From Phycisphaeraceae bacterium (GTDB lineage: Bacteria; Planctomycetota; Phycisphaerae; Phycisphaerales; Phycisphaeraceae), in the NCBI GenBank assembly GCA_963674705.1, contig OY771506.1:896001-960000 (forward strand): a stretch of 64,000 bases of DNA, read 5' to 3'. Shown here piece by piece: positions 45,001 to 48,000 of this stretch. How positions within the stretch are numbered: the stretch's first letter is position 1; each line of letters opens with the position of its first letter. Made by a program: the position numbers.

Positions 45001-48000
45001 AACTTCGGCCCGCGGTGGCGTCACGGGAGCCGGTAGACTCCAAAGCGTCGTTTTCAAGCGATGTGAGGTCGCCGAGGTCCGGTTCGGGCCCTGGGGCGAG
45101 CTGAGGGCTGGTATCCCCAACCTCGGGCACCGTGAGCGTCTTGCGGCAGGACGGACAGCGGACCATCTGCCCTGCCAACTGGTCCGGTGCAGCGAACACG
45201 GATCCGCAACTGCAGGTCACTTGTATCTTCATAATTCACCCGGCAAATTCGATTTAAAAAAATGACACCACCCCGAGCCTGAAAACTGGAGGCACAATAT
45301 GGGTCCAACCAGCCAAGGTCCCGTACACCGCCTCACCCGGCGCACGGATTATACCGGCTACACATCCCCACTTACGGGCATCTAGAGACCTACGTTCGAT
45401 ATTTTGGGGTTTATATTACGTTATCCCCTATTTTACCCAACTTTACATCTCCACACCCCTATGACGTTTAACGTGGGTAAGTGTTCAAAAATTTCATCCA
45501 TGAAGTTCCGGTTAGACGGTCTGATCCGGTTGTATTCGCTCAGATATCGTGTACAGTAGACAAAGCAGGGAGTGGAGAAAGACCCCCTGGGAGGGAAGCT
45601 GAGAGGAGAAAACCGTTCTTTTGGGAGAAAGACGGATCGGGAGAAAGTTAGGAGACGGAGAAAGCGCAGGAGGCGGAGAAAGCAGGAGTGGAGAGAGTAG
45701 GAGAGGAGAAAGGCAGGGAAGCACCTTGGGGAGAACAAGCAGGGATGCCCAACTCAGCTTCCAAGACCCTCGGCGAAAGCCGAGGGTTTTTCTTTTGTCA
45801 ACCCCAACGACTTATCCACCACCCAACAGGCGCACAGCCCTGTCGTGATTGAACGCTATGCGCACGTTGAGGACAGGCACAAAACACCGTTGATGGATGC
45901 CCTTTTACCGGGTTCATGCGCGCAGCCTGTCACACGCACTCGACTTGCTCGCGAGGATCGTATAGTGCATGGCCGCCACGATGAAGTGGCGATCGTAAAG
46001 GATGTCATTGCTTATATGGCTTGAGGTGCTGGGGTGTCGGGTGATACATCCCGGTTATGCGGCAGTGATGGGTGTGTGGCCGTATGATGATTGGTATACT
46101 CGCTAAGAGATTTCAATACTCGAACACAACACCGGGAAAACCGAATGGAGCCGAACTCTTTAGGTGACTCAATCCATCAACAGATAGAGGACCTTTGCTC
46201 CCTTGGGGACAGCCAGGTTGAACAAGGCAACCTGAAGATAGCACTTAAGTCATATCATGATGCACTTCATTTGCTACCTGAACCGGTCGAAGACTGGGAG
46301 GCCGCCACTTGGATCTACACGGCCATTGGCGACCTGTATTTCCAAGCAAGACAATTTTCAGATGCGATAGAAGCACTCAAGGCGGCGGTGCGATGTCCGG
46401 GTGGATTAGGCAATCCATTTATTCATCTGAGGCTTGGTGAATCACATTATGAATTGGGTCACGAGGATCTGGCAGCAGACGAATTAACCAGAGCATATAT
46501 GGGGGCCGGACGAGATATATTTGCAGCCGAAGACCCTAAGTACATAGACTTTTTAGCCACGCGGATTAAACCGCCTACCGGACAAGAACATTTGTAACTG
46601 GATACGGTAATAATCGGGAGATGTACTTTATCAGTTTGTGAACACAGTGTGGCACCCGACTAAACAGCGCCGCAAACCAGGGGCAATTGAAATGCAAGGG
46701 TTGGAACAGATAATTGAGTTGATTAAAGAAAATCAGGGTATCGCAGAGTTCGCTAACTTTGGTGACGGAGCTAGTGATGAATGGATTACCAAAGCCGAAG
46801 AGGCGATCGGTTGCCCCTTGCCCGATAGCTACAAATGGTGGTTTGCGAAATACGGTGGCGGAGAGATTGGAGGCGAAGAAATCTTCAGCGTTTATGAAGA
46901 AGACTTCGATGAGGTTGTAGGTGGAGACGTGGTTTACATGTATCGCCTCGATGCTGAAGAGAATAAGCGAAAATACAGAATCCCGATCTGCCACAGTGAC
47001 GTTGATGGAGTCTTTGCTTTCAACGTTCAACAAGGAGTTTCAAATAACGAGTATTCAGTGGTGAGTGAAGCAACCGGAACGAAATACGCTGAGAATTTTT
47101 TGGATTTTTTGGTTAAGCGAATTGCATGCTTCAAGGAACGACGCGGGCTCTGCCCCTCCCCGCTTTCGTGATGTAAGGGCCGAGGACATAGATAACAGTT
47201 AAATTCCTGCGGTAGACGCGCAATGGAAAAATTTGATTTAGATTGCGGCAGTGCAACGCCGGAGGCGTACGACGATGTGAGCAAAGAGGCGCTGCACATT
47301 CTCAATGTATACTTCATCGACGATGTGAACAGGAACCGAGTGGTCAATTTCGCCTGCGCAAGAGTCTTGCACTTTCACAAACACCTACCCAAAGGCAGTT
47401 CTCAAAGAGTTATATTCGATCTGAGGGGGCAACCGGTTGGTAACAATAATTTGGAATCGGCGCGAATGGCGATTGAACAAGAAGCTGTGAAGTATGGAAT
47501 CCGAATCTCCGTCGAATTCTTAACGAGTTAGTTATGGCGTATAACTTTACCGCTGAGAATCTTGGCAAGCAGGACCTACATGCCCTGGGAAAACGACTGT
47601 CTGAGTACAGCTTAATCGAGTTTTTTCCTGTTGAAGTATCCGCCGCGTCGCTTACATTGGGAATTTCTGTCCCGTTCAAAGCAATAGGCGATCCGGGATT
47701 TAGAACAGAGATCGAAAATGCGATGAGCTATTTGGTGACGGAGCAAGGATTCGTAGTAACCGATCTCTACACCGGCAACACAATCGCTCCCAGCGATATC
47801 CCCGGCTTGGCTCAACAGATCTCAAGGGGATAACGAGCGATAATAGCAGAGATAACGAGGCCTGACCTCGTTCAACTAGCTGATCGAAGTGAAGTATGAT
47901 ACCCGCTCAATTTCAAGTAACCACAAAATGATTTTTGTGTGATGCCGGCGTGAAAAGTCGCCAGTGCTCGGAATGGTTGCTGCCGTCGGGGAACACATCC

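Follow-up and report, generated by a model that had tools for sequence, protein, structure and literature searches.

A tandem array of seed complements in a Phycisphaeraceae bacterium, predicted to act as a sponge for a small RNA

The array locus

The window analysed here, a stretch of 64,000 nucleotides, comes from contig OY771506.1 of a Phycisphaeraceae bacterium (GCA_963674705.1, G000), and its position 1 is contig position 896,001. Coordinates refer to the window unless the contig is named. Nine GGAGA(A/G) sites are located on the forward strand between 45574 and 45737, with a terminator 3′ of them. Six of the sites are identical to GGAGAAAG (at 45574, 45624, 45640, 45657, 45675 and 45705), and the remaining three are the variants GGAGAAAA (45605), GGAGAGAG (45690) and GGAGAACA (45730). 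The genome contains 138 copies of GGAGAAAG, which form only three clusters within 300 nt, with six (the array), two and two members. The Poisson expectation for such a six-site cluster, from the intergenic rate, is about 1e-13, so that chance is negligible. The nine sites, the terminator and the uniqueness of the six-site cluster in the genome are therefore as given in a preliminary description of this DNA.

The array is preceded by a divergent gene on the reverse strand (41396–45232), which encodes a protein of 1278 residues with an N-terminal CxC...CxxC motif and no Pfam family. This gene is divergent from the array also in G001–G006 and G058, but not in G009. A short dispersed repeat with 17 BLAST matches in the genome lies directly 3′ of the terminator (45808–45852), and TPR and SMI1/KNR4 genes are located further downstream (46091–47171). 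In G007 and G058 the array is followed directly by the gene seen here at 50114–51679, and the intervening stretch looks inserted.

A promoter is predicted at 45530–45557 on the forward strand, with the boxes TTGTAT and TACAGT separated by 16 nt. The GGTTGTA and TACA-T columns are invariant in all 11 aligned copies of the array, and the spacer between them varies. A promoter had earlier been described as not clearly seen; the alignment reveals this conserved promoter-like element, though a scan with the sigma-70 consensus does not list it. The RNA is predicted to start near 45563–45566.

In the predicted fold, the RNA begins with a hairpin (45566–45589) that presents site 1 (GGAGAAAG, 45574–45581) in its loop. 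The lengths of the G-run and the C-run of the stem agree, by eye, in most relatives, with no two-sided change. The repeat domain is closed by a 10-bp helix, formed by the 5′ arm GGAAGCTGAG (45594–45603) and the 3′ arm CTCAGCTTCC (45753–45762). Its 5′ arm is invariant in 11 of 11 copies and as a result the helix has no covariation support. Sites 2–9 (45605–45737), recognized by sequence and by predicted duplexes, are GGAGA(A/G)A(G) octamers, most of which have a second GGA(G) 1–2 nt upstream. All nine octamers are largely accessible, with unpaired probabilities of 0.73–0.99 in the predicted ensemble; for sites 2–9 the range is 0.73–0.97. Site 9 is flanked by two GC-AGGGA(A/T)-GC motifs (45713–45748), which fit the ANGGAN loop pattern of CsrA and in which changes (in G001 and G004) are confined to the N positions.

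The RNA is predicted to end in an intrinsic terminator (45763–45798), consisting of a 12-pair hairpin (45763–45790) and a U-run. Two-sided changes are seen in 3 of 48 consensus pairs, all three in the terminator; the other helices are nearly invariant and hence unproven. The predicted fold of the whole array RNA has a z score of −3.0 relative to shuffled sequences. A search of Rfam below the gathering cut, which had been named as still to be done, gave only RsmY for the array (12.1 bits against a cut of 57, E value 7.7), and this is no real match.

Conservation of the array

The array is present in all ten other genomes of the genus, as had been reported, with 7–9 sites per copy. The copies among the relatives differ by the gain or loss of whole units. 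Outside the genus, copies were found in G058, which belongs to another genus, and on one metagenome contig. A looser array pattern matches in 28 of 144 family genomes, and many of these matches are unrelated repeats. In genome contigs of all species, a three-octamer pattern is found in at least 120 stretches from unrelated taxa, and the four planctomycete-labelled matches that were read are unlike the array RNA. Contigs from four sequencing runs show only strain differences.

The locus had been said to contain no reading frame. Three ORFs do overlap the array, of 75 residues on the forward strand and of 70 and 101 residues on the reverse strand. The distance between two fixed anchors in the array, however, takes all three values modulo 3 across 11 genomes, so that the frame is not kept. 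The claim is thus incorrect as to the presence of ORFs, and it stands as to a conserved frame.

A predicted partner RNA

The candidate partner of the array is a short sequence, referred to here as the seed, which is present as CTTTCTCCCCTCCG in four copies in the genome. Each copy is located directly 5′ of a hairpin and a U-run, and the copies follow genes for Hsp20, an M48 peptidase, a ROK kinase and a LysM/L,D-transpeptidase. The seed, (G)CUUUCUCCCCUCCG, is complementary to the array and to PEP-CTERM leaders alike. The sequence CTTTCTCCCCTCCG is found in 92 of 101 family genomes, with no match for the reversed control, and a hairpin with a U-run follows the seed at 30 of 30 family loci read. 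One further match, in G134, has no terminator behind it and looks like chance. At the level of the order, an overlapping 14-mer of the seed is present in 118 of 201 genomes, a tally that includes the unpublished genome G224. The full seed with its terminator was seen at 32 of 40 loci read from other families, but at none of the three loci from family f2.

The terminator of the seed RNA covaries strongly (42 two-sided cells, equalled by none of 500 shuffles), and the seed itself is fixed. Moreover, the base directly before the seed is G in all 29 aligned seeds. A fixed seed next to a covarying terminator is what one expects of a base-pairing sRNA, and such a function is predicted for the seed RNA. 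It has no Rfam match. Hfq was not found in the genome, which is 96.6% complete.

Among the copies of the seed RNA inspected by eye, that at contig 4073550–4073650 included, many have an upstream TG(G/A)AG, 17 nt, (C/T)CGA motif besides TTGA...TAAAAA, and this may be a second promoter type. At contig 3196390–3196680, G-rich seed-complementary stretches are found about 110–230 nt upstream of the L,D-transpeptidase-linked seed, on the same strand. The seed with a hairpin and a short U-run is also present on a viral contig (positions 601–650), just after an ORF of 87 residues; it is the only match in the viral collection, and may represent the host sRNA carried by a phage.

Predicted base pairing between the seed and the array

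Each of sites 2–9 can pair with the seed by 7–9 bp, and most add 3–5 bp across a small bulge. The repeat unit, GGA(G)-N1–2-GGAGAAAG, pairs in this way with both halves of the seed, with the small bulge between them. The predicted duplexes of sites 2–9 have energies of −13.4 to −22.4 kcal/mol, and the best single site reaches −22.4 kcal/mol with the 14-mer and −27.1 kcal/mol with the 15-mer. The energy of −31.7 kcal/mol quoted earlier is too favorable for one site with the seed; a value of about −32 kcal/mol is obtained only when 12 more upstream bases of the sRNA are included. In a multi-strand fold, which ignores steric limits, 8–23 kcal/mol are gained for each added seed, up to nine.

The predicted pairing is specific to the order of bases in the seed. 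Among 18,018 permutations of the same composition, the true 14-nt seed ranks fourth by summed pairing to the nine sites (−162, against a permutation mean of −106 with a standard deviation of 14). The top-ranked permutation corresponds to the natural RNA shifted by one base towards its 5′ end, which takes in the invariant G. A blind scan of terminators was added because the seed had been chosen for its match. It ranked the 660 terminator-like hairpins of the non-coding DNA, and the 21 nt upstream of the four seed terminators take ranks 1–4. Their scores are −187 to −172, compared to −134 for the fifth hairpin and a mean of −59. The tail of the 16S rRNA pairs far worse with the nine sites (−89). 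Pairing of the seed with CsrB and CsrC of E. coli is weak, at best −13.8 and −11.2, respectively. The identification of the repeats as complements of a family-wide seed, put forward in the preliminary description, is upheld by both rankings.

Other RNAs and arrays with seed complements

Smaller decoys had been placed at contig positions 1321650, 2301860 and 3802250. The first is part of an RNA (contig 1321620–1321800) that is conserved in all ten relatives and has its own promoter-like boxes and terminator. It retains ACGGAGGGG and GGGAGAAAGA, which jointly cover the whole seed, and its terminator loop, GAGGGGAGA, is a third seed complement. Its boxes are TTGC(G/A)T and TACA(T/G)T, and the downstream box is like that of the array. 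The second is part of an RNA (contig 2301850–2301990) found in 8 of 10 relatives, which mostly retains GGAGGGGAGA and has a conserved terminator. The third, at contig 3802250, precedes a PEP-CTERM gene. At the gathering score, none of 19 loci gave an Rfam match, and seed loci, arrays and the smaller decoys are likewise without one.

Unrelated arrays with a terminator, located by eye or by script, are present in G015, G060 and G367, and arrays in front of genes in G003, G007 and G076. The second arrays reported for two genomes are indeed present, in G003 and G007, but they are the ones that lie before genes, and behind them no terminator could be located. In G076, G003 and G007, three to seven tandem seed sites are located directly before the genes, and these may be multi-site target leaders. 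With the pattern used, three-site arrays were found in none of 11 genomes of family f4 and none of 19 of family f5 (a tally that also includes G224), though both families have the seed.

Arrays in genera with a changed seed

Of the 15 genomes of genus g37, 8 have no standard seed followed by a terminator. In the clade concerned, the standard seed is gone at all four ROK loci read, and UUUUCUCCUCCG is found before the terminator in all five genomes searched with an RNA model.

In three of the variant-seed g37 genomes, a PEP-CTERM gene is followed by an array. In these three arrays, GAGAAA is continued by G in 1 of 13 cases; the ten arrays with which they were compared, all from genomes that have the standard seed, show this G in 40 of 47. 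The 13 arrays were chosen by eye from 33. The 20 excluded arrays were coding, beside repeated elements or simple repeats, and have A 32, G 25, C 13 and T 1 at this position. For all 13 arrays, the seed of the same genome is the better pairing partner. The three variant arrays belong to one orthologous locus and hence represent one covariation event. In g37 leaders with GGAGAAA before ATGA, the next base is G in 7 of 41 cases in variant-only genomes and in 10 of 52 in genomes with the standard seed, so that no shift is seen there; six of the standard-seed genomes of g37, however, also have a variant-like seed.

A DNA search with the 3′ array of g37 returned mostly matches to PEP-CTERM tails. 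With a search by the neighboring gene, a purine array was located at this locus in six genomes of the variant clade, and two genomes with the standard seed were found to have the PEP-CTERM gene there without an array. The 3′ ends of g37 PEP-CTERM genes carry purine arrays or pyrimidine seed-like stretches upstream of the terminator. At one g37 locus, G131 has a seed-like stretch where its relatives carry an array.

Genus g56 has another seed variant, and no array that matches it was found in this genus. Pairs of GGAGACA were matched three times, in two of the g56 genomes; in G096 the reversed control was matched at least as often.

PEP-CTERM leaders as predicted targets

The repeats had been said to mimic the ribosome-binding sites of PEP-CTERM genes, and the leaders of these genes are enriched for the octamer. 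The octamer GGAGAAAG is present in 13 of 300 PEP-CTERM leaders and in 6 of 3730 other leaders, counts that rest on one crude start rule for all genes, with starts chosen by SD strength, and that are not fully independent because 195 of the 300 PEP-CTERM proteins form one similarity cluster. The 13 PEP-CTERM proteins with this octamer have no mutual BLAST match at 1e-5 and fall into 11 clusters. Where the leader contains GGAG, it continues with A(A/G) in 87 of 215 PEP-CTERM leaders, compared to 143 of 1066 others. In addition, only 5 of 300 shuffled seeds match the PEP-CTERM leaders as well as the real seed does, against 274 of 300 for the other leaders.

CsrA and the alternative explanations

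The most direct alternative is that the array is an RNA of the CsrB/RsmY kind that titrates a CsrA homolog, and that it matches the seed since both mimic purine-rich ribosome-binding sites. As the preliminary description stated, the genome encodes three CsrA homologs, and a CsrA sponge is a genuine rival. The residues M1, L2, L4, R6, E10, R44 and E46, which function in RNA binding, are kept in them. The flagellar-type CsrA adjoins fliW. The second CsrA carries a loop insertion. A weaker-scoring match is seen in most family genomes, several of them without a strong flagellar-type match. CsrA is present in 143 of 144 family genomes and in all four array-bearing genomes that were rechecked, and because it is near-universal in the family, its co-occurrence with the array cannot separate the two explanations. 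The size and the terminator of the array RNA are like those of CsrC, the two ANGGAN-type loops next to site 9 are conserved, and the faint match to RsmY (12.1 bits) points in the same direction. As in CsrB, RsmY and RsmZ, many GGA motifs and a terminator are present, but the main repeat mostly lacks the A(N)GGA context and Rfam gives no match to such RNAs.

The binding site of CsrA is an ANGGAN loop (PMC7652899, in the part of that text available). The array has 19 GGA in about 200 nt, and 12 of the 19 have an A at −1 or −2, compared to 19 of 22 in CsrB and 13 of 14 in CsrC of E. coli. Across ten genomes, this A is present for 31 of 74 GGAs in octamers and for 62 of 80 outside them, so that the main repeat lacks it in 43 of 74 cases. 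Moreover, the tail of the repeat is fixed: GAAAG follows GGA 6 of 19 times in the array, and in CsrB and CsrC no 5-mer does so more than twice. Two arrays elsewhere fit the seed and not CsrA, that of G003, in which none of seven GGAs has the A, and that of G060, with three GAGAAAG units and no GGA. The two other conserved RNAs retain seed complements that contain G4. The presence of fliW also speaks against titration of CsrA, as an anti-correlation has been described between FliW and the two-component system behind CsrA-antagonist sRNAs, in a study that also lists Planctomycetes among the phyla that may use FliW (PMC4682653, available in part). For the main repeat, these comparisons of sequence favor RNA–RNA pairing over titration of CsrA, which we regard as improbable.

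A combined arrangement, in which CsrA occupies A(N)GGA motifs that alternate with the octamers or lie downstream of them and the seed RNA competes for the overlapping sites or is assisted in reaching them, would link the two networks. The non-octamer GGAs alternate with the octamers, and the frequency of A at −1 or −2 among them (62 of 80) is what such an arrangement would show. Hfq was not found, and CsrA reportedly promotes sRNA–mRNA pairing in B. subtilis, according to one study (PMC6546359). On the other hand, pairing with the 3′ half of the seed also explains most of these GGAs, and many of the spacings between GGAs are 5–6 nt, shorter than most in CsrB and CsrC. We consider this arrangement to be as doubtful as simple CsrA titration. 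Less probable still is a decoy role, in which the array would attract the tail of the 16S rRNA, or some other protein that recognizes GGAGAAAG in the leaders of PEP-CTERM genes, and the seed RNA would be a bystander. The 16S tail CCUCCUUUCU has nearly the letters of the seed in another order, and the repeats are like strong ribosome-binding sites, but the tail scores −89 where the seed scores −162, and the letters of the g37 array followed the change of the seed. Expansion of a repeat, with no RNA function, is the least credible explanation. Similar purine repeats do lie beside repeated elements in other family genomes; the array locus, however, is kept in 11 of 11 genus genomes and in G058, with conserved promoter-like boxes, a closing helix and a covarying terminator.

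Proposed mechanism

We propose that the array RNA titrates the seed sRNAs by pairing with several of them per molecule, and in this way relieves the repression of PEP-CTERM mRNAs. We assign this reading a probability of about 0.72. Two features of base-pairing sponges are predicted for the array RNA, namely transcript ends of its own and an accessible site complementary to a seed of the same genome. The reading of the array as a sponge for an RNA, as put forward before, has also come through sequence tests that it could have failed. Both the array RNA, a stand-alone non-coding transcript of about 230 nt, and the seed RNA would be transcribed. The seed RNA would block the entry of ribosomes on PEP-CTERM messages. 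The array and seed RNAs would pair without Hfq, and up to about eight seeds could be loaded on each array molecule. By soaking up the seed RNA, the array would lift the predicted repression of the messages for PEP-CTERM surface proteins, and the gain or loss of units may tune the threshold of titration. A stress-triggered brake on export that is buffered by the sponge is plausible, because two of the seed copies follow protein-quality-control genes. A search of the ORFs with a signature of RNase III gave no match.

More broadly, the Phycisphaerales may possess an Hfq-free, microRNA-like network, in which an order-wide anti-SD seed from several stress-linked loci would hold down a large PEP-CTERM regulon. 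Multi-site sponges, each with a load of several sRNAs, would buffer the seed, vary in their number of sites through gain and loss of repeats, and follow mutations of the seed, having arisen repeatedly as stand-alone RNAs, in leaders and at 3′ ends. We would give this wider model even odds.

Relation to known RNA sponges

The closest parallel is RosA of Bacillus subtilis, a sponge for RoxS and FsrA. RosA is also stand-alone, with its own promoter and terminator and a length of about 229 nt, and its single-stranded G-rich regions pair with C-rich regions of the sRNAs (PMC8216469, here and below as far as the text is available). Of its three G-rich regions, a single one is key for each partner (PMC8216469), whereas the array has 7–9 near-identical sites for one seed. 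No sequence relation between RosA and the array was found. CrfA of Caulobacter crescentus has the network logic proposed for the array, with one sponge against four dispersed anti-SD sibling sRNAs, SisA–D, but it has one mapped site (G49–C63) and uses Hfq (PMC12559287, available in part), while the array has many sites in a genome in which Hfq was not found. It is likely, by analogy, that the array works like RosA and CrfA; homology to either is not implied.

SroC (PMC4474525) and QrrX (PMC13501541, PMC12559287), in the available parts of these reports, are base-pairing sponges as well, and in contrast to the array they are RNAs of the Hfq systems of Proteobacteria. SroC derives from a target mRNA, as the g37 arrays lie behind PEP-CTERM genes, and pairs with a single GcvB molecule through two short sites that differ from each other (PMC4474525). 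The RNAs CsrB, CsrC, RsmY and RsmZ resemble the array in being repeat-rich and non-coding, with many GGA, a similar size and a terminator; their partner is a protein, bound through A(N)GGA loops whose flanks vary (PMC7652899), whereas the flanks in the array are fixed and complementary to an RNA. Titration through many sites has been described for the protein sponges CsrB and CrcZ, and the available text of a 2026 review ascribes multiple sites to protein sponges but to no RNA sponge (PMC13501541). The published bacterial sRNA sponges RosA, CrfA, QrrX and SroC, as far as the accessible reports describe them, have one to three unlike sites.

The preliminary description regarded a dedicated sponge of this kind as a new regulatory design. 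This is too wide, since RosA and CrfA precede it; the tandem many-site layout and the system around it look new. A literature search, thin in subscription journals, found neither a tandem sRNA sponge with 7–9 sites nor a study of planctomycete sRNAs. In animal multi-site microRNA sponges such as ciRS-7/CDR1as, a single RNA bears the match to one seed in many imperfect copies; these sponges are eukaryotic, circular and Argonaute-based. The layout of the array is like theirs, with no homology implied. If the proposed reading is true, a sponge with 7–9 sites for one seed represents this animal layout in bacteria, and the copies among the relatives form a natural series of site numbers for testing how the threshold is set. 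The array also exposes a predicted order-wide sRNA without an Rfam match, and offers a handle on the control of about 300 PEP-CTERM genes per cell.
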